Below, piece by piece: positions 4,549 to 14,560 of a stretch of DNA of 64,000 bases (the first letter of the stretch is position 1; each line of letters starts with the position of its first letter). This stretch comes from Methanobacteriota archaeon. Its GTDB lineage: Archaea > Thermoplasmatota > Thermoplasmata > RBG-16-68-12. The notes below the pieces were generated by a model. That model ran no database searches, had not been told where the DNA came from, and saw only the letters and a program-made list of their open reading frames with translations. The DNA is taken from assembly GCA_947084985.1 (NCBI GenBank), contig CAMTUI010000026.1, forward strand, positions 508 through 64,507. Reading direction: 5' to 3'. A program made the position numbers and the translations under genes.

Positions 4549-5808
4549 TCAGAGGCTGACGCGGATCCGGCCCACAGGGCCCGCAACGACCATGGAACTC
4601 GCGGTGGGATCGAAGTACTTCTGGGAAACGGATCGAATGCGGTCTTCCGTGAGGTCGTTCATGATATCCGGGAAGCGCTCGAGGAAGTCCATCCCGAGGC
4701 CATAGTACTCCATGCGGTGCAGCTCCGTGGCGACCTCCGCGTTTCGCTCGAGGGACACGATCAACGCGCCAATCTGGTTGTCCTTGCCGTCGCGGATTTC
4801 GTCCGACGTGAGGGGCTCCCGCCGCAGGCGGTCCATCTCCGCGCGGATCGAGCGGATTGCCTGCGGGATGTTCGAGGGGTTCACGCCCGCGGCGATCGTC
4901 CACATCCCGCCCGCCGTCCGGGCCTCGAGGCTGCTGAACGCGTAGTACGCGAGGCCTTGCCCGTCCCGAAGGTTCTGGCCGAGTCGGCCGTACAAGCCGA
5001 TGCGACCGAAGAGGAGATTTGCGAGATGTAGCGCGTAGTAGTCGTCGTGGCAGCGCGAGATGGCAGGCGCGCCCACGGCGATGTCCGCCTGGGACTTGTG
5101 GGGCATCGGGATCCACAGGTTCCTCGGCCGGTATGGCGGGGGCACAGGGATGGCCGGACCGACGCGGCCGTTCCCCCGGAAGCGGGACAGGGGATTCGCG
5201 ATCGAGTCCTCGATGAACGCCCGGTCCACGTCGCCCGCGAGGGACAGGATGAGGCCTTCCGGACCGACGTGGGCCTCGTGGAACGCGACAACGTCGGCCC
5301 GGCGGATCCGCCTGATGCGGGTTTCGTTCCCCTTGGGATCCCGACCGTACGGATGGTCCTTCGGGAACACGCTCCGCGCGAGCTCGCGGGCCGCGCGGTG
5401 CCGCGGGTCGTCCGCTTCGATCCGCAGGTCGTTCCTCATCTCGCCCCGGACCCGCTCGACCTCCTTCGGAGGGAACGCGGGTTCCGAGAGACACTCCACG
5501 AGGATCCGGATCGTCTCCGCGGCGGTCTCCTGCGTGCATCGCCCTTGGAAGCCGAGGAGCTCCTCCGCGTTCCGGAATTCGAGGGTCGACCCGATCCCCT
5601 CGAGCCGATCCGCGAGCTTTGCCGCACTCCGGCGCTTCGTGCCGCTCAGCATCAGGCGGGCCATGAATTCCGCGATGCCGTGGTCGTCGGCTTCCGCCGC
5701 CATCCCGGCGGGCACGCTCCCGCGGAACGCGACGAACGGGTTCGCCGGCAGGGCTTGGGATACAAGGACTGCGCCGTTGTCGAGGACCGTGCGGTCCGGA
5801 AGGCTCAG
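4549..5808 (-). CDS. M16-family peptidase, non-catalytic subunit (degenerate zinc motif); the 5' end is uncertain
   Basis: The listed ORF 4549..5715 starts at a GTG, but the in-frame upstream translation 'LSLPDRTVLDNGAVLVSQALPANPFVAFRGS' looks like the conserved M16 N-terminus. 'HGIAEFMARLMLSGT' replaces HxxEH. Confidence 0.7.
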   Translation of the reverse strand: MSLPDRTVLDNGAVLVSQALPANPFVAFRGSVPAGMAAEADDHGIAEFMARLMLSGTKRRSAAKLADRLEGIGSTLEFRNAEELLGFQGRCTQETAAETIRILVECLSEPAFPPKEVERVRGEMRNDLRIEADDPRHRAARELARSVFPKDHPYGRDPKGNETRIRRIRRADVVAFHEAHVGPEGLILSLAGDVDRAFIEDSIANPLSRFRGNGRVGPAIPVPPPYRPRNLWIPMPHKSQADIAVGAPAISRCHDDYYALHLANLLFGRIGLYGRLGQNLRDGQGLAYYAFSSLEARTAGGMWTIAAGVNPSNIPQAIRSIRAEMDRLRREPLTSDEIRDGKDNQIGALIVSLERNAEVATELHRMEYYGLGMDFLERFPDIMNDLTEDRIRSVSQKYFDPTASSMVVAGPVGRIRVSL

Positions 5809-7085
5809 GAGGGGACCTCCTGGTGGTGGAATCGAACGACGGATCGATGCTCATCGACGAGGTACTTGCGCGCGACTCCGCGCACCTGCTCCGGCCGGAC
5901 CTTGAGGACCTCCGCGAAGAGGCCGTCCGTGAAATCCCAGGAGGCGAGGCCCTCGCTCACGCTCAGGAGCATCCCCTGGTATGTGACGCCATCCTGCTCA
6001 TAGCGGGACCAGGCGCGCACCTGCGCCTTAGCGCGCTCCATCTCGACCTTCGAGGGCGGGGCCTTGCGGAGCACGGCGACCTCGCGGTCCAGGACGTCCT
6101 CGACGCGGTCGAGGGACACGCCGCCCGCGAGGGTCACGTTCGCGATGAGCAGGGACGGATCGATCTTCATCTCGTGCCTCACGCCGACGTCCGTCGCGAG
6201 CTTCGTCTCCACGAGGGCGCGGTAGAGGCGGTTCGACCGCGGTCTCCACTCGCCCGCCGCGTAGGGGATGAAGCCGCGCCATCCGCCGAGGATCGTCGCA
6301 AGGAGGAGGATCGCCGGGGTGTCGTCGTGCGTGGCCGGCGGGATGTGCCAGCCCACGGAAAGGAGATCCGCGGCCCCCGGTCGGGACAGCTCGCCGCGCC
6401 GCTCCCCGTGCTGCTCCGGCTCCACGAGCGGCATGGGCTGCGGCGGCGCTTCCGGCCTGAGCGGCCCGAACGCCTCCCGGATGTGCTGCATCGCGACCGC
6501 CGCATCGAACCCTCCAACGAGAATCAGAGTCGCGTTGTTTGGCGCGTAGTACCGAAGGTAATGCTCGTACAGCGGGTCCCGCGCGAGCGCCGCGAGGTCT
6601 TGCTTGTACCCGATTGCGGTCCAATGATACGGGTGGACATGGAACGCAAGGCCCCACAACTCCTCCTCGACAAGGAACTCCGGTTGGTTCTCCGCCCCCT
6701 CCCGCTCGCTGATCACCACGGTCCGCTCCGCCTCGACCTCCTTGGGGTCGAAGGCCGCGTTTCGCATCCGCTCCGCCTCGACCATGAGGGCCGTGTCCAT
6801 CGCGCTCGCGGGGATCGTCTCGAAGTAAATCGTGTAGTCCGTGTCCGTGAACGCGTTGAATTTGCCGCCGAGGCGCGAGATGAGGCGGTCGATCTCCCCC
6901 TTGGCGAGCTTTCCTCCGCCCTTGAAGAGCATGTGCTCGACCCAGTGCGTCGAGCCCGTCATCCCGGGCCGCTCGTTCCGCGAGCCGATCCGGTACGTGA
7001 CCCACGTGGACAAGGCCTTCGTCTCCGGGATCGGTCGAAGGATGACCTTCAGCCCGTTGTCGAGGGACTCGACATGGGTGGCCAT
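5805..7085 (-). CDS. M16-family zinc peptidase (pitrilysin/insulinase-like), catalytic subunit
   Basis: 'GSTHWVEHMLFKGG' carries the inverted HxxEH zinc motif. I chose the start at ATG 7085 (MATHVESLDNGLKV) rather than the listed 7271. Confidence 0.85.
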   Translation of the reverse strand: MATHVESLDNGLKVILRPIPETKALSTWVTYRIGSRNERPGMTGSTHWVEHMLFKGGGKLAKGEIDRLISRLGGKFNAFTDTDYTIYFETIPASAMDTALMVEAERMRNAAFDPKEVEAERTVVISEREGAENQPEFLVEEELWGLAFHVHPYHWTAIGYKQDLAALARDPLYEHYLRYYAPNNATLILVGGFDAAVAMQHIREAFGPLRPEAPPQPMPLVEPEQHGERRGELSRPGAADLLSVGWHIPPATHDDTPAILLLATILGGWRGFIPYAAGEWRPRSNRLYRALVETKLATDVGVRHEMKIDPSLLIANVTLAGGVSLDRVEDVLDREVAVLRKAPPSKVEMERAKAQVRAWSRYEQDGVTYQGMLLSVSEGLASWDFTDGLFAEVLKVRPEQVRGVARKYLVDEHRSVVRFHHQEVPS

Positions 7086-7137: not shown

Positions 7138-7686
7138 TCACGGGCCCTCGGACGCTGACGTTCGCAGGACGAACTCGCAGACCGAATCGCCCGTGCCACG
7201 GCATGTCGTCTCGATGCAAGAGATGCCCTCGGCCCAGAAGAGGGCGCGGAAGAAACCCGCGAAGTAGCCACGCAGGAAGTGGCACGCCGGACGGTCCCAG
7301 GTCCCTTCCTGCCCGTACGTCTCCAAGGTCCGCGTGAGTCGGAGTCGGGCCTGTCGGCTCTCCCGGTCCACCTCGATCGACGACACGGCGAACCAGCCGC
7401 ACCGGGAGTACACGTCGCCCAGGTGGTCCACGATCTCCATCGGGTCCTGACTGCCGGTCCATCGAGCCATCGTGCCGACGAACGCTTCGCCCGCCTCGAG
7501 GCCGCTGCGGTACAGGAGGTCGTCCGCGGCGGGACCGAGCGTCGCCCGGACCTCCCGAAAGAACCGCCGCAAGGTGTCCCGCGAGATCACGACCACGGGG
7601 ACGGTCGAGAGACGCGTGTCCGCGGTCCTCGGCTTCGTCGTCAGCTGCCAGAACTCGTCGATGTCTCGGATCGCAGATCTCACCAC
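7138..7686 (-). CDS. V4R domain-containing protein
   Basis: The C-terminal pattern 'CHFLRGYFAGFF...CIETTCRGTGDSVCEF' is typical of V4R (4-vinyl reductase) small-molecule-binding domains. Confidence 0.65.
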   Translation of the reverse strand: MVRSAIRDIDEFWQLTTKPRTADTRLSTVPVVVISRDTLRRFFREVRATLGPAADDLLYRSGLEAGEAFVGTMARWTGSQDPMEIVDHLGDVYSRCGWFAVSSIEVDRESRQARLRLTRTLETYGQEGTWDRPACHFLRGYFAGFFRALFWAEGISCIETTCRGTGDSVCEFVLRTSASEGP

Positions 7687-7689
7687 GGC

Positions 7690-8820
7690 TGTGTGTTCAG
7701 CGCCAAAGCTCGGCTTAAACCGCGGGCCGCGAGAATCAGAGGTGATTACCGGCCTTGACGGGATCGATATTCACGGCCGGCGAGCTTGACCGACGATTAC
7801 CTCCCTGGCTTGTCTTTTGTGGCGCCGAGGCGCTGTCCCTTTGCATTCAGCTCCTTCATTCGTCTGTAGAGCGCCTCTCTGGTAGCCACGACCCTCCGCG
7901 AAAGAGGGGCGAAACCGTTTGCGTCGCGGCCCTGCCGCGTTCTCCTCTTGTGCCTTATGAATTGCAAGAGGACGACCGCCTGCCTCCGATTGACCTGGAG
8001 ATATGGCAAGGCCGACAACAAGAGCTGCTGGACCATTCGGTCGGACCACACCAATTGATAGGCATGCTTCCAACCGATTTTGACGGCAGGCTGGTTCACA
8101 AGGATCCCTCCAAAGGCTCGCTGCAGGTCCTCGAGTATGACCCTATCTGTGTTGCTGACACACACCCGCGCTCGGTACTGAAGTCCCCGATGCCTCCGAC
8201 TCTCCGATCGCGCAATCATCAGACAACCCTCCGCATCGATGAAACCGGCCAGGTATTCCGAGGAAATGGTCCGAGATTCTGATTTACGAGCAGTGTTGTC
8301 GTGACCCCTGGAAACTGAAACCGATCCCCTTTTGTTCAGGAGCTTAAGGCGCCTGTAGAAGGCGTCGCGGATTATCAACTCCCGCCCCGAAAGGGACAGA
8401 AGGCGTCCGAGTCGATCTCTCCTCCGGCGGGATCCTCGGACATGGAAAACGAACTCACGCAATGCTGCAGCCTGTTTCGACTTAACCCGCAAGAAGGGCG
8501 AAACCTTTGTCAGCAATCTTGCGGCGGCTGCGTTTGTCCAGACCAGAGCGTACTGGGGCTTCCATCCGGGGCTCCTCGGACCAACGCTCACAAAAATTCC
8601 ACCTGAGAACCTCTGGATTTGGTTCAAGATCGGTCGATTTGTATTGGTAATGGACACCCTGGCGCAATATTCGTGCGGTCGGTCGCGCCGAGGTATCCGT
8701 GCGATTGAGAGATGCCCCTCGCCGTCTACAAAACCGGCAAGGTATTCGACGGAGAGCACGGCCGACGGCCAGAGAGCATGGGGAAAGCCTAAGGTTCAGG
8801 GAGGGAGGTTGGTGAAAGTG
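7690..8820. mobile_element. Lower-GC island carrying the homing endonuclease gene
   Basis: Hand count gives 30/60 G+C at 8281..8340 versus 38/60 at 9001..9060. The island is bounded by the V4R gene and the Pup-like ORF. I found no terminal repeats. Confidence 0.45.
7797..8759 (-). CDS. Free-standing LAGLIDADG homing endonuclease (two-domain)
   Basis: Two LAGLIDADG motifs are present, 'YLAGFVDGEGHL' at the N-terminus and 'YLAGFIDAEGCL' mid-protein. The gene is visibly lower in G+C than its flanks. Confidence 0.85.
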   Translation of the reverse strand: MLSVEYLAGFVDGEGHLSIARIPRRDRPHEYCARVSITNTNRPILNQIQRFSGGIFVSVGPRSPGWKPQYALVWTNAAAARLLTKVSPFLRVKSKQAAALREFVFHVRGSRRRRDRLGRLLSLSGRELIIRDAFYRRLKLLNKRGSVSVSRGHDNTARKSESRTISSEYLAGFIDAEGCLMIARSESRRHRGLQYRARVCVSNTDRVILEDLQRAFGGILVNQPAVKIGWKHAYQLVWSDRMVQQLLLSALPYLQVNRRQAVVLLQFIRHKRRTRQGRDANGFAPLSRRVVATREALYRRMKELNAKGQRLGATKDKPGR

Positions 8821-8997
8821 CTAAGCGCGCCTGTCTCCCCCTTCCCCCTTTTGCGCCTTGAATCTTGCCGAGTCCAGGTCGAGTTCGAAGTCCTCTTCCT
8901 TGACTTCGCTCGGGGTAAAGACCTTGCCGGCCTCAAACTCTAGCTTCTTTTCCTGCTTCTTCCGCTTCTTCGGCTTTTCCTCAACCTGCTGTGGCAT
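8821..8997 (-). CDS. Pup/UBact-like small protein (58 aa), not in the ORF track
   Basis: Hand translation gives MPQQVEEKPKKRKKQEKKLEFEAGKVFTPSEVKEEDFELDLDSARFKAQKGEGGDRRA. The ATG at 8997 overlaps the stop of the upstream ligase gene by 17 nt. The acidic helix plus 'FKAQKGE' resembles the Pup C-terminus 'YVQKGGQ/E'. Confidence 0.6.
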   Translation of the reverse strand: MPQQVEEKPKKRKKQEKKLEFEAGKVFTPSEVKEEDFELDLDSARFKAQKGEGGDRRA

Positions 8998-10279
8998 AGG
9001 CCGCCTCCAGTTTCGTGGCGTATGGATCCAGAAGATCGATACGCCGCCGCGTCCCGTCGTTCACGATGACCATCGACCAATCAATCATCTCGATATCGAA
9101 GGTGTCGCACAGCTCCCGTCGCAGGTGTGCTCGGGTGTCTTCCGGCGGCTCGTGGATCGCGTCCTTGATCGCCTCGTCGTCCGTGATCCGGTCGATGAGC
9201 CCGGCCCGTTGTCGCTTGTAGAACAACGAGCGCTCCGCCCCGATCTCCGAATACTGCTTGCAGGCCATCATCTCGACGTCCGACCCGGACTTCTTCTCCA
9301 CGGCCTCCTGGATCGCGAAGTATCGATCGAGCCACTCGACGCGCCGCGCCGCGTCCTTCGAGCGCCGGTTCTCGAGATCGTCGAGGACCTCTTCGAGGAT
9401 TCGCAGCGCCCTGCGTTCGCGGTGATCCTCCGCAAGCGGCTCGATCTTCCCCAAGTAGTACCGCTGGATGTCGACCGGCGACACGACGGATCCGTCCTCG
9501 AGTTCCACCCGCCATTGCTCCGGGTTCCGCGTCTCGACATTGCGCCAGAGGTCCTTCACCGGGTCCTTCAGGCGAGGCACATCGTCGAGTTGTCCGGCCT
9601 CCATGAGCTGCAAGATAGCGGAAGTCGTGAAGTGGCGGAGCATGATGGCGGTTTCGTTCATCAGCGCGTCGCCGACGATCACGTGGAGCCGACGCCATAC
9701 GCGGCCATCCGCATGGGGCTCGTCCCGCGTGTTCAGGATCCCCGTGTCGTGCATTGTCTCTCCGCTGATCACCTGGGAGGTCAGGAACGCCATCGGCGAC
9801 AGCACGTACTTGCCGCGGACGATGTCCCCCGCGCCGGTGTAGATGAACCGCGTGGCGAGATGCGGAACGAGCTCGCGGATGAAGCGCTGCGGGAACGCGA
9901 CGTCCCGCGACACGCAGTAGTTCTCGTGGGATCCGTAGGACGTCCCGTCGGGTGAGGTGTTGTTCTTGAAGGCGTGGATCTTCGTCTCCGAGGAGATGTA
10001 CTTCTCCTCCATGACGCGCCGAAGCCAGTCCAGGACCTTCTCCCCGGCCTTCTCCCAGACCACGACGTCGTGGAAGTTCGTCGTCTCCGCCGTGCTGACC
10101 TCGAAGTGCCCGACGTCGTAGTAGACGCGGGAGCCGTTCGTGATGAACTCGCCCGCGAGGTGGAGGTCCGATTCCCGCAAGAGGTCGAGGGCCATCATGT
10201 GGGGATCGAACCCCATCGTGCCCATCTTGCGGCAGTACAGCGTGTACTCGTGCTCGGTCCCCTGGATCATCTTCTTCAT
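8981..10279 (-). CDS. PafA/Dop-family Pup ligase/deamidase homologue (carboxylate-amine ligase fold)
   Basis: Motifs line up with PafA: 'GTEHEY' (GIETEF), 'NGSRVYYDVGHFEVSTAE', 'FKNNTSPDGTSYGSHENY' and 'LNTRDEPHADGRVWRRLHVIVGDALMNE'. It is 432 aa, and I saw no long Dop-type loop. Confidence 0.85.
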   Translation of the reverse strand: MKKMIQGTEHEYTLYCRKMGTMGFDPHMMALDLLRESDLHLAGEFITNGSRVYYDVGHFEVSTAETTNFHDVVVWEKAGEKVLDWLRRVMEEKYISSETKIHAFKNNTSPDGTSYGSHENYCVSRDVAFPQRFIRELVPHLATRFIYTGAGDIVRGKYVLSPMAFLTSQVISGETMHDTGILNTRDEPHADGRVWRRLHVIVGDALMNETAIMLRHFTTSAILQLMEAGQLDDVPRLKDPVKDLWRNVETRNPEQWRVELEDGSVVSPVDIQRYYLGKIEPLAEDHRERRALRILEEVLDDLENRRSKDAARRVEWLDRYFAIQEAVEKKSGSDVEMMACKQYSEIGAERSLFYKRQRAGLIDRITDDEAIKDAIHEPPEDTRAHLRRELCDTFDIEMIDWSMVIVNDGTRRRIDLLDPYATKLEAAYATAG

Positions 10280-10282
10280 GCA

Positions 10283-11842
10283 TCACCCGACCATCGGATC
10301 CGCACCGGTCCGGAAGACCTCGCGCTGCCGCTTCTCGTACACGTACATCTCCGTGATCGCGTGCTCCTTGCACTCCTCGTCGATGGCCATCTCGAAGTCC
10401 CGCAGGCTCAGGCCCTCCTTCTTCCGGTCGGACTTCTTCAGGAGAATGACCCGCTTCACGAAGTTCTTCTTCGCCGTGGTGACGATGGCCTCGATGATCG
10501 CGCCCGAGATGATGTCCTTGCGCTTCACGGTCTTGATCGCTTCCTTCGCCTCGGCGTCGAGCTTCACCCTGACCCACTTGTTCTCTCCGTAGAGCTCGTC
10601 CAAGACGAACTTGCGGAGAGTGTCGATTGCCTCCGAGCGGCCGCCGTACTGCTGCTCCAGCTCGGATGCAACGGGGAGCTCCTCGTTCAGGTAGATCCGC
10701 AGGATCTCCTCGGCCGCCATGCGCTCGGGCCGCGGGATCTCGATGATCTCGTCGAAGCGGCCCGGCCGCAGCAGGGCGGGGTCCACGAGGTCCGCGCGGT
10801 TCGTCGCTCCAATCACGAAGACATCGTGGAGCTTGATGAGCCCGTCCATCTCGCTCAGGATCTGCGCGATGATGTTCTTGTGCACGCCCGACGTGTCCAT
10901 CATGCCACGCACGGTGAAGAGGGCCTCGATTTCATCGAAGAAGACGATGCTCGGCTTCTTCTCGTGGGCCTGGCGGAAGATCTCCTTGATGATCCGCTCC
11001 GACTCCCCGACCCACTTCGAGAGGACATCCGCGATGCTGACGTTGAAGAACGTCATGTCGTTCTCCGTCGCGATCGCCTTCACGAGCAGCGTCTTGCCGC
11101 AGCCCGGAGGACCGTACAGGAGGATGCCGCGTGGCGCCTCGAGATTGATCTGCTGGAACAGCTTGGCCTCCTGGTACGGGAGGACGACGACGTCCTTAAT
11201 CCGCTCGATCGCCTCCATCAGCCCTCCGATCTGGCCGTACGTCACGTTCGGCTTCTCGCCGAGCAGGAGGGATTTGACCTCGAGGTTCGGCAAGATATCG
11301 AGGACCTCCATCGTGGGAGGGAGGACGCTGATCTGGAATCCCGGCTTGAGCTTCTTGTAGACACCCTTCTCGCAATCGATCAGCCGCTTCTCCATGTCGC
11401 CCTCGACGGAGATCACGAGCTTGCCGTCCATCATGTCGGCGACCTTCGCGATCACGCCTTCGTTCCGCACGGGAGAGCCTTCGACGATCGCGTAGGTCTG
11501 CGGGTGGACCCACACATACTGACCGACCCCGAGCTGCGCCTTCTCGACGAGACCGGTGGAGACCTTGAGCAGTTCCGTCGCGCGCGCGACGACCACCTGG
11601 TTCCCGTCGAGGTCCGGTCCCTCCTTGCGCACGACGTACGCGTAGAGGAGCGGCGGCTGCTTGATCTTGTTGAACTTGTCCTCGTACGCCTTCAGGCGGT
11701 ACTCACGCTCCTCGATCTCGTATCGGAAGGAATGGAGATCGCGTTCGTACTGTCGGCGCAGGCGGTCCATTTTCTCCTCGAACTCGTCGCGCACTTCGTC
11801 CGCAGACTTCGACGCCTTTCCATCGCCTTCGTCGCTCGCCAT
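10283..11842 (-). CDS. Mpa/ARC-type AAA+ ATPase (proteasome-associated-ATPase-like)
   Basis: It has an N-terminal coiled coil and an OB-like region, plus Walker A 'GILLYGPPGCGKTLL' and Walker B 'IVFFDEIE'. The post-AAA segment 'ILRIYLNEELPV...ISGAIIEAIVTTAKKNFVKRVIL' parallels Mpa 'IYSKYLTEFLPV...[22 protein letters not shown]'. Its stop lies 3 nt before the ligase ATG. Confidence 0.85.
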   Translation of the reverse strand: MASDEGDGKASKSADEVRDEFEEKMDRLRRQYERDLHSFRYEIEEREYRLKAYEDKFNKIKQPPLLYAYVVRKEGPDLDGNQVVVARATELLKVSTGLVEKAQLGVGQYVWVHPQTYAIVEGSPVRNEGVIAKVADMMDGKLVISVEGDMEKRLIDCEKGVYKKLKPGFQISVLPPTMEVLDILPNLEVKSLLLGEKPNVTYGQIGGLMEAIERIKDVVVLPYQEAKLFQQINLEAPRGILLYGPPGCGKTLLVKAIATENDMTFFNVSIADVLSKWVGESERIIKEIFRQAHEKKPSIVFFDEIEALFTVRGMMDTSGVHKNIIAQILSEMDGLIKLHDVFVIGATNRADLVDPALLRPGRFDEIIEIPRPERMAAEEILRIYLNEELPVASELEQQYGGRSEAIDTLRKFVLDELYGENKWVRVKLDAEAKEAIKTVKRKDIISGAIIEAIVTTAKKNFVKRVILLKKSDRKKEGLSLRDFEMAIDEECKEHAITEMYVYEKRQREVFRTGADPMVG

Positions 11843-12128
11843 CTGTGGATCACCGCGTGCGTATGCCCGCGAGTCGGCTGGGAATCAGGAGCATCTGCTC
11901 TTCGGACGGAAGTCCATGGAACAAGATGCGGCCTCGTCCCATCCCTTGTTAGAAAGTGGCATCCTGAATTAAAGCTTTTGTTATCGGTATTGAGCCTGCG
12001 ACGAACCAAGTTCCGCTGCGCTCTGCTGACGGATGTGCGCCTCCGTTAAACGCCCGCGCGACATCCGAGCGCGCAGACGTGTTTGTAGTAGCAATAAGAC
12101 CAAAAAGGGAGGCGCCGGTCCGCGGAGC

Positions 12129-12710
12129 GTGGAAGGCCTCGTCCCCTTCGCGGCCGCGCTCGGTCTTATCGTCGTCCTAGAACTCGGGGACAAGACGCAA
12201 CTCGCGACGATCTCCCTCGCGTCGCGCCACCCGTGGCCGCCGGTCCTACTTGGCGCGGCGACCGGATTGATCCTCGTGACGGCGATCGGGTCGGCCGCTG
12301 GGCTCCTGCTCGCGGAGCTCCTGAGGGACTGGATCTTCGCGATCAAGATCGGAGGCGGTCTCCTCTTCATCGCGTTCGGCGTCGCGAGCTACCGGCACCA
12401 GGAGCGGGAGGCAGCCGACGAGAGGGCGAGACCGCGGGGTGCCTTCCTCACGGCGTTCACGATGAACGCCGTGGCGGAACTCGGCGACAAGACGCAGCTC
12501 GCCGTGATCATCCTGGTCGCGTCGACGGGGGCGCCCCTGAGCGTGTTCGCGGGCGCGAGCGTTGGTCTGACGGCCGTTGCCGGGGCGAGCGTTGCCATCG
12601 GCACGTGGCTCGCGCGAATCTTGCACACCGACCGCATGCGCGTCGCGTCCACGCTGCTGTTCATCGCGGCGGGGGTCCTCCTCATCGTCGAGGCGCTCAT
12701 CACAGGTTGA
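12129..12710 (+). CDS. GDT1/TMEM165 (UPF0016) family cation transporter
   Basis: Two 'ELGDKTQL' (E-x-G-D-K-T) motifs sit within hydrophobic segments. I chose the start at GTG 12129 (VEGLVPFAAALG), because the listed N-terminus is Arg-rich and non-membrane. Confidence 0.8.
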   Translation: MEGLVPFAAALGLIVVLELGDKTQLATISLASRHPWPPVLLGAATGLILVTAIGSAAGLLLAELLRDWIFAIKIGGGLLFIAFGVASYRHQEREAADERARPRGAFLTAFTMNAVAELGDKTQLAVIILVASTGAPLSVFAGASVGLTAVAGASVAIGTWLARILHTDRMRVASTLLFIAAGVLLIVEALITG

Positions 12711-13856
12711 TCACGCCAGACCGTGAATCGGGAAGAGCGTGCGGCGGATCTCATCGACCGTGCGCTTCGCCTGTCGGGGCACATGGGCGTCCTCGTCCGC
12801 TCGCTCATGGTCGCGGAGGGACTTGTCCGCCGGCACGGAGCCGACGAGCTGGTTGCACTCCCGCAGCCATTCCGCGGGGATCGCGTCCTCGAGGTTCGCG
12901 CCGACCATCTTGGAGAACAGGAGAGTCCAGACCCGGGGGACCGCGGTCAGGTCGTAACCGCCTCCCGCCACGGCGATCCAGCGTCCGCCGCACAGTTCCG
13001 TCGAGAGGCCGTCGAGGATCCGGCCCACGGCCTCGTACGTCTCCGTCGTGAGCATGAGGTGGGTGAGCGGGTCCATGTGGTGCCCGTCGGCCCCGAGCTG
13101 GCTCACGATGACTTCCGGTTGGAACGCGCGGGCAAGGGGCGGGACAATTTCTTGGAACGCGTAGAGATAGGATACGTCGCGCGTGTACGGCGGCAGGGGC
13201 ACGTTCACGGAGAAGCCCCGTCCGGGGCCCTCGCCGATTTCGTCCGCGAACCCGCTGCCGGGGAACAGGTAGTGGCCGTCCTCGTGGAGGGAAATCGTCA
13301 TGACGCGCGGGTCCTCGTAGAAGATCGCCTGGACGCCGTCGGCATGGTGCGCGTCGACGTCGACGTACAGGATGCGCTTGAGCCTGAATTCCTCCAAGAG
13401 GGATGCGATGCCGATTGCCACGTCGTTGAGGATGCAGAACCCGCTCGCCTTGTCGCGCATCGCGTGATGGAATCCGCCGCCGAGGTTGAACGCCCGCACG
13501 TGGCGGCCCGACACGACCTCTTCGCATGCGCGGGCCGTCGCGCCGACCTGGAGGGCCGCGGCCTCGTACATGCCCGCGAAAACGGGATTGTCCGCGGTCC
13601 CGAGTCCGTGCTCGTACGACGTGCCCGAAGGATCCGCGCTGAGCTTCCGCACAATCCCGAGGTATTCGGGCGAGTGAACGCGCAGGATCGCGGCGTCGCC
13701 GGCCGGCGCGGGCCGTAACTCGTCCACGCCGTCGCGAATCAAGCCGTACGAAGCGATTAGGTCCCGCGCGAGCTTGAGCCGGACCTCCCGCAACGCGTGC
13801 TCTTTCCCGAAATCGTATCGGAGAAACTCGTCGTGGTACAGGAGGGCGGCCCGCAC
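12711..13856 (-). CDS. Histone deacetylase-family enzyme (AcuC/acetoin utilisation or acetylpolyamine amidohydrolase type)
   Basis: Contains 'GGGFHHAMRDKASGFCILNDVAIG' and 'YVDVDAHHADGVQ'. Confidence 0.85.
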   Translation of the reverse strand: MRAALLYHDEFLRYDFGKEHALREVRLKLARDLIASYGLIRDGVDELRPAPAGDAAILRVHSPEYLGIVRKLSADPSGTSYEHGLGTADNPVFAGMYEAAALQVGATARACEEVVSGRHVRAFNLGGGFHHAMRDKASGFCILNDVAIGIASLLEEFRLKRILYVDVDAHHADGVQAIFYEDPRVMTISLHEDGHYLFPGSGFADEIGEGPGRGFSVNVPLPPYTRDVSYLYAFQEIVPPLARAFQPEVIVSQLGADGHHMDPLTHLMLTTETYEAVGRILDGLSTELCGGRWIAVAGGGYDLTAVPRVWTLLFSKMVGANLEDAIPAEWLRECNQLVGSVPADKSLRDHERADEDAHVPRQAKRTVDEIRRTLFPIHGLA

Positions 13857-13949
13857 GCATCCCGAAACGCGGTTGCGACACTTAAAAGGAACCGCGCGTC
13901 GCTCGGCGGCCGCGACTATTATCTGATTTCCTGAATGAAAGATGAGGGT

Positions 13950-14560
13950 TCAGAGCAGCCAGCCACCCGTGACGCCGATCACGTCGCCCGTGACGAACTC
14001 CGCCTCGTCGGAGACGAGGAACAAGACAGCCGACGCGACGTCTGCACCGGTGCCCGACCGACCAACGGCGGTCTGCGAATCCTTCCGCCGGCGTGCGGCG
14101 GAGGGACGGAGATCGGGATCCTCGATGATGCCGGGAGAGACGACGTTCACTGTGATGCCATGGCGGCCGACCTCCCGCGCGAGAGACTTCGTGAACGCGA
14201 CGATTCCCGCCTTTGCGGCGTAGAACGCGGACATGTCCGCGGACCCGTGGGCCCGGTAGGCGCCGGCGGCGCCGAGGTTCACGATGCGCCCCCACGCATT
14301 GCGGCGCATATGCCTCGCCGCGTATTTCGAGCAGAGGAACGTGCTTGTGAGATTCGAATCGAGGATGCGACGCCAGGTCGCGAGGTCCATCGTCTCGACC
14401 GGCTTGACGACTCACTCTCCCACGTTGTTCACGAGGATGTCGAGCCGACCGAAGGACCGTGGCCCGGCGTGCCGCCTGGAGAGCCGCCCGTCCAGCCGCC
14501 GTCTGAGCCTTCGCAGCCCCCGCCGCAGCCCCCGTCGGCACCCTAGCCGGGGCGACTCGA
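13950..14560 (-). pseudogene. Short-chain dehydrogenase/reductase remnant (in-frame TGA, N-terminal Rossmann motif missing)
   Basis: The C-terminal 146 aa are intact ('SADMSAFYAAKAG' carries S...YxxxK). Upstream, in the same frame, the sequence reads '...FGRLDILVNNVGE-TGA-VVKPVETMDLATW'. No TGxxxGxG appears in any of the three minus-strand frames I translated between 14415 and about 14650. Confidence 0.55.

Follow-up and report, generated by a model that had tools for sequence, protein, structure and literature searches.

A small gene overlapping a PafA/Dop-family ligase gene

The 64,000-nucleotide stretch of contig CAMTUI010000026.1 analysed here (positions 508 to 64,507 of the forward strand; hereafter the window), from the Methanobacteriota archaeon assembly GCA_947084985.1 (Thermoplasmata), carries on its minus strand a 58-codon open reading frame (ORF) at 8821..8997, a candidate protein modifier, directly after the genes for a proteasomal-type AAA ATPase and a PafA/Dop-family ligase. 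The frame appears as an ATG-started ORF in the ORF listing of the window and its translation, MPQQVEEKPKKRKKQEKKLEFEAGKVFTPSEVKEEDFELDLDSARFKAQKGEGGDRRA followed by the stop, agrees letter for letter with that given in an earlier note on this DNA. The encoded protein begins with a region rich in Lys and Arg; LEFEAGKVF, an acidic D/E-F-E-L-D-L-D segment and the KGEGGDR core come next, and RA ends the chain. It was modelled as largely unstructured, mostly coil (AlphaFold2 (AF2), 73-sequence alignment, predicted TM-score (pTM) 0.20). Its ATG (8997..8995) falls within the final 17 nt of the 432-amino-acid ligase ORF (8981..10279, minus strand; TGA at 8983..8981), exactly the overlap previously claimed, and a Shine-Dalgarno-like GGAGG, read directly at 9004..9008 on the minus strand, lies 6 nt 5' of this ATG within the ligase coding sequence. 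The start/stop overlap recurs in related loci at 17, 14, 8 or 1 nt, and the small ORF is judged translationally coupled to the PafA-type ligase.

As the window DNA is 65% G+C, with many spurious ORFs of similar size in its listing, a frame of 58 codons could have arisen by chance and comparison across relatives was therefore used. A homologue search returned 165 protein clusters of 57-60 amino acids with 66-93% identity to the small ORF, those with names being hypothetical proteins of Thermoplasmata archaea, several of them in NCBI and JGI records. Scanning for the ligase in one genome per species gave 52 loci, all from Thermoplasmata-type metagenome-assembled genomes (MAGs), or 53 with the window, and the small-protein profile matched the frame directly 3' of the ligase in 53/53 loci having that DNA (window included). 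A DNA-pattern scan of metagenomes yielded 120 further ligase loci, and in all of the 95 with enough downstream DNA to be tested the small ORF directly followed the ligase. Conservation downstream of homologous ligases, which the earlier note had named beforehand as a refuting test, was thus found in 148/148 testable loci with ligase identities of 57-100%, the linkage persisting down to the 57% end of that range (L125, L085). The stop codon stood at one fixed codon position in 48 distinct alleles, with TAG, TGA and TAA all in use, and invariant residues were encoded by up to 6 synonymous codons (all six for Arg56). The ratio of non-synonymous to synonymous polymorphism (pN/pS), taken over codons 19-58, was 0.17, and it was 0.10 when only codons 50-58 were counted. 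Because of this conservation, the fixed stop, the low pN/pS and the 100% synteny, the small ORF must be regarded as a real gene under purifying selection.

The neighbouring ligase matched Pup_ligase (PF03136, E=1.7e-89), in line with its earlier description as PafA/Dop-like, and carries the NCBI label 'PafA2 family protein'. Against NCBIfam it scored 258.5 bits with the PafA model (TIGR03686, cut-off 551) and 257.2 bits with the Dop model (TIGR03688, cut-off 492), both below cut-off, and is by these scores equally distant from PafA and Dop; against solved structures the match to Dop (188 bits) was slightly above that to PafA (152 bits). Every Dop is reported to have a loop of 40-65 residues that no PafA has (PMC8599861). 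Alignment of the N-terminus of the archaeal ligase with C. glutamicum PafA starts at PafA residue 12 and contains a gap of 2 residues only, and the catalytic Asp is residue 55, compared with residue 94 in A. cellulolyticus Dop; the archaeal ligase therefore lacks this Dop loop. PDB alignments thus indicate a PafA-type architecture, with no Dop loop before strand beta2 and with the catalytic Asp and GxExE motif kept, and across the ligase clade no variation was seen in YYDVGH or in GTEHEY, the GxExE-type motif. R201 of PafA, reported to form a salt bridge to the Pup C-terminus (PMC8599861), aligns to Thr179, as does the matching Arg in the two Dop structures, and among the archaeal ligases this Thr is invariant; this mapping is secure because there are no gaps between the position and the neighbouring INTRDEPHAD block. 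A supposed 39%-identical ligase (L075) proved to be a frameshift-ridden copy from the same clade and was discarded.

The gene transcribed ahead of the ligase (10283..11842, minus strand) encodes a 519-amino-acid AAA ATPase of proteasomal type, with a charged helical N-terminal region, an OB domain and an AAA domain (Pfam AAA and Prot_ATP_ID_OB_C). Its best NCBIfam match was pup_AAA (Mpa/ARC, TIGR03689) at 350.8 bits, below the cut-off of 504.75, with PAN at 269 bits, and Mpa chains matched residues 96-467; PADLOC matches of the gene reflected generic AAA similarity only. In relatives the transcribed order is short-chain dehydrogenase, histone deacetylase (HDAC)-like gene, AAA ATPase, ligase and small ORF, an order kept even by the most distant loci, and all cluster loci come from Thermoplasmata MAGs. 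The HDAC-family gene of the window (12711..13856, minus strand; PF00850, E=7.7e-90; lysine or polyamine deacylase-type) has counterparts directly upstream of the AAA gene in nearly all loci, approximately 30 of them by tblastn with the most distant included, and also at 5632-6816 in L002 and 5049-6200 in L035.

The Glu/Gln52 site, the C-terminal extension and divergent relatives

Searched with the small-protein profile, 1.84 billion representative proteins yielded 94 relatives of the small protein; a further homologue search with the broad profile gave back the close clade only. The aligned family shows a Lys/Arg-rich N-terminus followed by L-E-F-[ED]-A-G-K-V-F, an acidic D-F-x-L-D-L, A-R-[YF]-K-A-x and K-G-[EQ]-[GA]-G-[DTNS]-R. 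The last of these, the core, spans codons 50-56 in the window (K-G-E-G-G-D-R; 8830..8850, minus strand) and takes the form KG[EQ][GA]G[DTNS]R in the 232 motif-bearing members. Residue 52 (8842..8844, minus strand) is Gln in 123, Glu in 105 and another residue in 4, i.e. Glu or Gln in 228/232; G54 never varies, and G51 and R56 hardly do. Near the C-terminus, no acidic or amide residue other than Glu/Gln52 is conserved throughout the family; lying between glycines, Glu/Gln52 is proposed here as the reactive residue, with Glu versus Gln being the only difference between near-identical alleles that have the same ligase (L016 vs L017). Residue 55 is D in 189 members, T in 21, N in 12 and S in 8, while E/Q52, G54 and R56 do not vary; Asp55 was for this reason rejected as the reactive residue, and the use of 'GGD', suggested earlier, is unlikely.

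Beyond Glu52 the window protein continues through G53-A58 (GGDRRA; 8824..8841, minus strand), and the claim that this C-terminal extension is real was borne out, with the stop fixed across the 48 alleles and a pN/pS of 0.12 for tail codons 53-58; by these measures the extension is judged genuine and under strong selection, and not an artefact. Of 'QKGE' and the tail, the conservation of which the earlier note proposed to check, the K-G-[E/Q] part holds family-wide, whereas the six-residue tail after residue 52 is constant in the close clade only. Family conservation ceases at Arg56, beyond which close-clade members have 2 more residues and other members 2-73, with Cys-rich tails in some. A two-residue end (RA, RT or RS) was seen in 94/96 scored ligase-linked copies, the most distant ligase-linked members (ligase 57% identical) end GGDRKKDGN or GGDRKKEGE, and it is the tails of virus-like members that reach 73 residues. 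The tail as a by-product of the homing endonuclease insertion described below was ruled out, as loci without the endonuclease bear an identical tail. Longer 'read-through' forms (P0002, P0024, P0121 and similar) look like gene calls reading the stop as sense, and not real variants.

Divergent family members were found mostly in virus-like surroundings, the assignment of contigs to viruses resting on their gene content. Members P0125, P0177, P0142, P0183, P0146, P0148, P0170 and P0141 lie on contigs L058, L059 and L062-L068, with the virus-like contigs having a G+C content of 42-61%. Two contigs of 64-73 kb (L062, L063) encode a DNA methylase, PCNA, DUF5131 and a radical SAM protein; another of 81 kb (L064) encodes UDG, dUTPase, ribonucleotide reductase, ThyX and DUF3310, with PolB two genes downstream. 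L065 carries RecU, PolB and HNH genes, L066 a UDG gene, and L067 a Phage_tube_2 tail tube protein together with an 1852-amino-acid Laminin_G protein, while L058, L059 and L068 present rows of small genes of no known family with TFIIB, zinc ribbon or resolvase genes. Two further contexts (L060, L061) look cellular and contain riboflavin synthase and MetRS genes. For the virus-like contigs, PCNA and TFIIB suggest hosts among the archaea, as judged from gene content, and several of their small proteins have Cys-rich, zinc-knuckle-like tails after KGQ[AG]G.R. The divergent relatives had no match in PHROGs or IMG/VR (two alignments scanned), and in deposited phage genomes tblastn found nothing similar to a viral-type member or to the PolB beside it. 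One virus-like contig shares a groundwater well (Hainich H43) with a ligase-bearing MAG, which is a co-occurrence only.

Comparison with known tagging systems and proposed role

Pup is defined by a length of 50-90 amino acids, a G[EQ] signature at the extreme C-terminus and a gene adjoining PafA (PMC2588565), and is joined to its targets via a side-chain carboxylate, with Gln deamidated beforehand (PMC12288473). At 58 amino acids and with the disorder of its AF2 model, the archaeal protein falls within the size and character of Pup, and its gene adjoins a PafA/Dop homologue. As in the Pup system of Actinobacteria (PafA, Dop, Mpa), the gene for a small unstructured protein has as neighbours those of a PafA-family ligase and of an AAA ATPase of proteasomal type, the Gly-[Glu/Gln] site tolerates only Glu and Gln, and the ligase has the PafA architecture and the catalytic Asp. 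Unlike Pup, which ends at E/Q, the archaeal G[E/Q] continues as [G/A]-G-x-R and at least two further residues in every member (here G51-E52, then GGDRRA), and the N-terminus is Lys/Arg-rich, not acidic or Gly-rich. The system further differs in showing one ligase homologue at the locus and not a PafA and Dop pair, in having Thr for the Arg that contacts the Pup C-terminus, and in its archaeal host.

UBact loci (NF033388; Nitrospirota, Verrucomicrobiota and other Gram-negative bacteria) likewise have a small gene preceded by genes for a Dop/PafA-like protein and an Mpa-like ATPase, and they comprise Mpa, Dop, UBact, PrcB, PrcA and PafA. In contrast, the archaeal locus holds only the Mpa-like AAA gene and one ligase gene, without PrcB, PrcA or a second ligase; LAGLIDADG, V4R and M16 genes, or in other loci unrelated genes, lie downstream, and UBact ends at G-E/Q where the archaeal protein extends beyond. 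By eye only, the basic ...A-[RK]-x-[YF]-[RK]-x-[QR]-x-G-[EQ] stretch resembles that of a UBact-like sequence validated as a match to NF033388.

In ubiquitin-like proteins a conserved Gly-rich motif followed by a variable tail marks the processing site, and the archaeal family resembles ubiquitin and ubiquitin-like precursors in being conserved up to a Gly-rich motif and then having tails that vary in length and sequence. A further likeness is to virus-encoded ubiquitin genes, in that viruses of the host group carry homologues. Unlike ubiquitin, there is no beta-grasp fold and there are no E1/E2-type enzymes, the ligase belonging to the glutamine-synthetase/GCL superfamily. Glutamylation by tubulin tyrosine ligase-like enzymes, of ATP-grasp fold, is a precedent for a reaction in which an internal Glu of a flexible tail receives an amide bond at its gamma-carboxylate at the expense of ATP; these enzymes add amino acids, whereas here the fold is another one and the attachment of a protein to lysine is proposed.

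We regard the small ORF as encoding the dedicated small-protein partner of a predicted archaeal Pup-type conjugation and unfolding module, most likely the tag. The specific reading that it is the tag of a Pup-analogous ligase/unfoldase system, joined via the side chain of internal Glu52 or trimmed beforehand, has in our judgement about an even chance of being correct, and it rests also on the E/Q-only site, which matches the substrate/product pair of PafA/Dop enzymes. Gln52 alleles would be deamidated first, possibly by the same ligase, and the AAA ATPase would recognise the tag and unfold the target, presumably for the archaeal 20S proteasome. Since Pup is coupled by a side chain, with no part for the alpha-carboxylate, the protein would not have to lose what follows Glu52, with the flanking glycines letting the internal Glu reach the active site; loss of the PafA Arg that contacts the free C-terminus of Pup (Thr179 here) would fit such conjugation. 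Alternatively, the protein may be trimmed after Glu52, in keeping with the pattern of conservation up to the Gly-rich motif followed by variable tails as in ubiquitin-like precursors. A neighbouring pair of M16 peptidase genes, with an HxxEH site, would be the candidate protease in the close subclade; the more distant loci are without the pair. The HDAC-like neighbour may be an accessory or eraser enzyme acting on the lysine side, by deacylation or by removing the tag. More tentatively, we propose that a single PafA-like enzyme might attach an unstructured tag to lysines through the side chain of an internal, glycine-flanked Glu/Gln without requiring a free C-terminus, and that archaeal tailed viruses might carry versions of the tag, differing in their tails, with which to exploit or jam the pathway.

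Several observations weigh against the small protein being a Pup-analogous tag. The small ORF had no Pfam or NCBIfam match at E<=10, no Pup family appeared among the Pfam matches of 73 family members, and comparison of the family with Pup or UBact sequences by hhalign gave probabilities of 0.1-0.5% (0.1% for UBact). The same model library recognised M. tuberculosis Pup as a positive control (TIGR03687, 4e-21) and a UBact-like query (NF033388, 9e-20, 70.7 bits), and the small protein matched none of TIGR03687, PF05639 and NF033388. No PHROG or PADLOC family matched it either, and a profile search of PDB sequences with the small-protein family returned nothing relevant. The small protein is thus not a detectable member of the Pup or UBact family by its sequence profile, and because no profile similarity was found, an outcome that the earlier note had named as refuting, its membership of that family is not justified. 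In addition, 0/232 family members end at E/Q. The description 'Pup/UBact-like modifier' therefore stands for size, disorder, ligase linkage and the K-G-[E/Q] site, but fails on profile match and on the C-terminal end.

On the enzyme side, only one PafA/Dop homologue was seen in the 64-kb window and in flanks of +/-8-10 kb, yet approximately 40-50% of alleles carry Gln, and conjugation via an internal Glu by PafA is not reported in the pupylation literature searched. The C-terminus of the AAA ATPase (...DPMVG, 10283..10300, minus strand), invariant in related loci, is neither HbYX nor the GQYL of Mpa, and no proteasome subunit genes adjoin the cluster, another difference from the Pup system. 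AF2 modelling of the ligase concatenated with the small protein (unpaired alignment, with homologues of the ligase all >=67% identical) reached a mean predicted local distance difference test (pLDDT) score of 52.8, too poor for docking. Finally, no ligase adjoined the small gene in 10/10 genomic contexts of divergent family members, for which reason the function of the family need not depend on the ligase.

This last observation, with the presence of relatives in virus-like contigs without a ligase, also suits a different role, in which the small protein is not conjugated but binds via KG[EQ]GG.R to the ligase or the AAA ATPase, serving to regulate it, as an adaptor or as a pseudo-substrate, for example as an inhibitor or activator, with the viral relatives manipulating the host enzyme. 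The motif is always internal and the tails vary freely, and strict co-occurrence with translational coupling would suit a stoichiometric partner equally well as a tag. However, the restriction to E/Q at position 52 is hard to explain by pure binding and matches the PafA/Dop substrate/product pair, and no such regulator of PafA or Dop was found in the PafA/Dop literature searched; we consider this role unlikely.

An unlikelier origin is that of a viral or mobile-element protein unrelated to tagging, whether replication-associated or binding nucleic acid via KKRKKK, of which the Thermoplasmata copy would be a captured gene that only happens to adjoin the ligase. Sequence diversity is greatest in the virus-like contigs, near PolB, RecU, UDG, ThyX, RNR or tail genes, and a homing endonuclease is inserted directly after the cellular copy. 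Against this, all 148 testable ligase loci carry the small ORF in one position with overlapping start and stop at 57-100% ligase identity, the small ORF is present in endonuclease-free loci (L002, L003, L023), and there was no PHROG, IMG/VR or INPHARED match. We find it improbable that the small protein is instead the precursor of a product akin to ribosomally synthesised and post-translationally modified peptides (RiPPs), with a leader up to ...GG.R, a variable C-terminal core, modification by the ligase and leader removal by the M16 pair. A conserved N-terminal part followed by variable tails, some of them Cys-rich (P0143, P0150, P0164, P0192, P0193), and the adjoining M16 pair in the close subclade would be expected of such a precursor, but the 'core' would be just the two residues RA, RT or RS in almost all scored ligase-linked copies, the long-tailed members are those without a ligase, distant ligase loci have no adjoining M16 genes, and a proteasomal AAA unfoldase is no RiPP component. 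A chance reading frame in G+C-rich DNA, for which the many spurious ORFs of the window and the lack of any matching family model might speak, is already refuted by conservation, fixed stop, pN/pS, complete synteny and the hypothetical-protein records, and is given virtually no credence.

The enzyme families concerned are known; what is new is the putative tag family, the internal position of the reactive-looking residue, the archaeal host and the virus-borne relatives. A 2025 review (PMC12288473) describes Pup in bacteria only; in the literature searched, pupylation is described only for Actinobacteria and a few other bacterial phyla, and the modifiers credited to archaea are of beta-grasp type (SAMPs, Urm1, a ubiquitin homologue). 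No description of an archaeal Pup-type system or of the family motifs was found by full-text searching. If correct, the tagging interpretation would give archaea a third kind of tagging system, in a widespread soil lineage, and would bear on the origin of pupylation because its single enzyme is no closer to PafA than to Dop. It would also relax the rule that tags end at the reactive residue, helping both the recognition of tags in genomes and PafA-based labelling tools, and the virus-encoded relatives would be a first hint of archaeal viruses interfering with a Pup-like pathway, comparable to eukaryotic viruses with ubiquitin genes. The two processing models predict different tryptic remnants on lysine, +571.235 Da (GEGGDR) for internal linkage and +186.064 Da (GE) for the trimmed form, and are therefore directly testable on existing soil metaproteomes.

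Other genes around the cluster

Downstream of the small ORF, the M16 pair consists of a first peptidase with an HxxEH zinc site (HWVEH) at 5805..7085 on the minus strand (PF00675, PF05193), with its likely start at the Met of MATHVESLDNG, and a second M16-family subunit at 4549..5715 on the minus strand (PF05193, PF00675), the N-terminus of which is uncertain. Only in the closer subclade does the pair come after the small ORF; it adjoins it in L002-L004 and was not detected downstream in distant loci L033-L043. The second subunit has 418 amino acids in L002 and L003, with its start overlapping the stop of the first, and the first start codon in the window frame (4549..5808) gives 388 amino acids, so its N-terminus may be altered, or an unlisted start used, in the window.

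Between the small ORF and the M16 pair lies a gene for a free-standing double-motif LAGLIDADG homing endonuclease (7797..8759, minus strand; PF00961, PF14528), starting at a distance of 61 nt from the small ORF. Approximately 30 related loci have it at this position, with only 40-59% identity; L002, L003, L023, L026 and L047 are without it, and L015, L040 and L041 retain broken pieces of it. Endonuclease-bearing loci share the sequence [CT]ACTTTC[AG]C[CT]NACC[CT]C directly after the small-ORF stop (18 nt, 8803..8820 in the window), and no group I intron or other Rfam family was found in the region. Judged by these patterns of presence, the spot resembles a homing cycle of gain, decay and loss beside a highly conserved gene, and the LAGLIDADG gene is a selfish insert that stands outside the system. 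A V4R-domain gene (7138..7686, minus strand) lies between the endonuclease and the M16 pair; as it also occurs in L013 and L019, both without the endonuclease, this spot varies between genomes.

Upstream, a GDT1 transporter gene (12033..12710, plus strand) is inserted between the HDAC-like and AAA genes in the window. Beyond the HDAC-like gene, short-chain dehydrogenase fragments at approximately 13950..14453 on the minus strand match relatives over their C-terminal 167 residues only, in one frame, and a longer ORF in another frame (13882..14541, minus strand) is without a Pfam match; the short-chain dehydrogenase gene may be frameshifted or truncated in the window genome.

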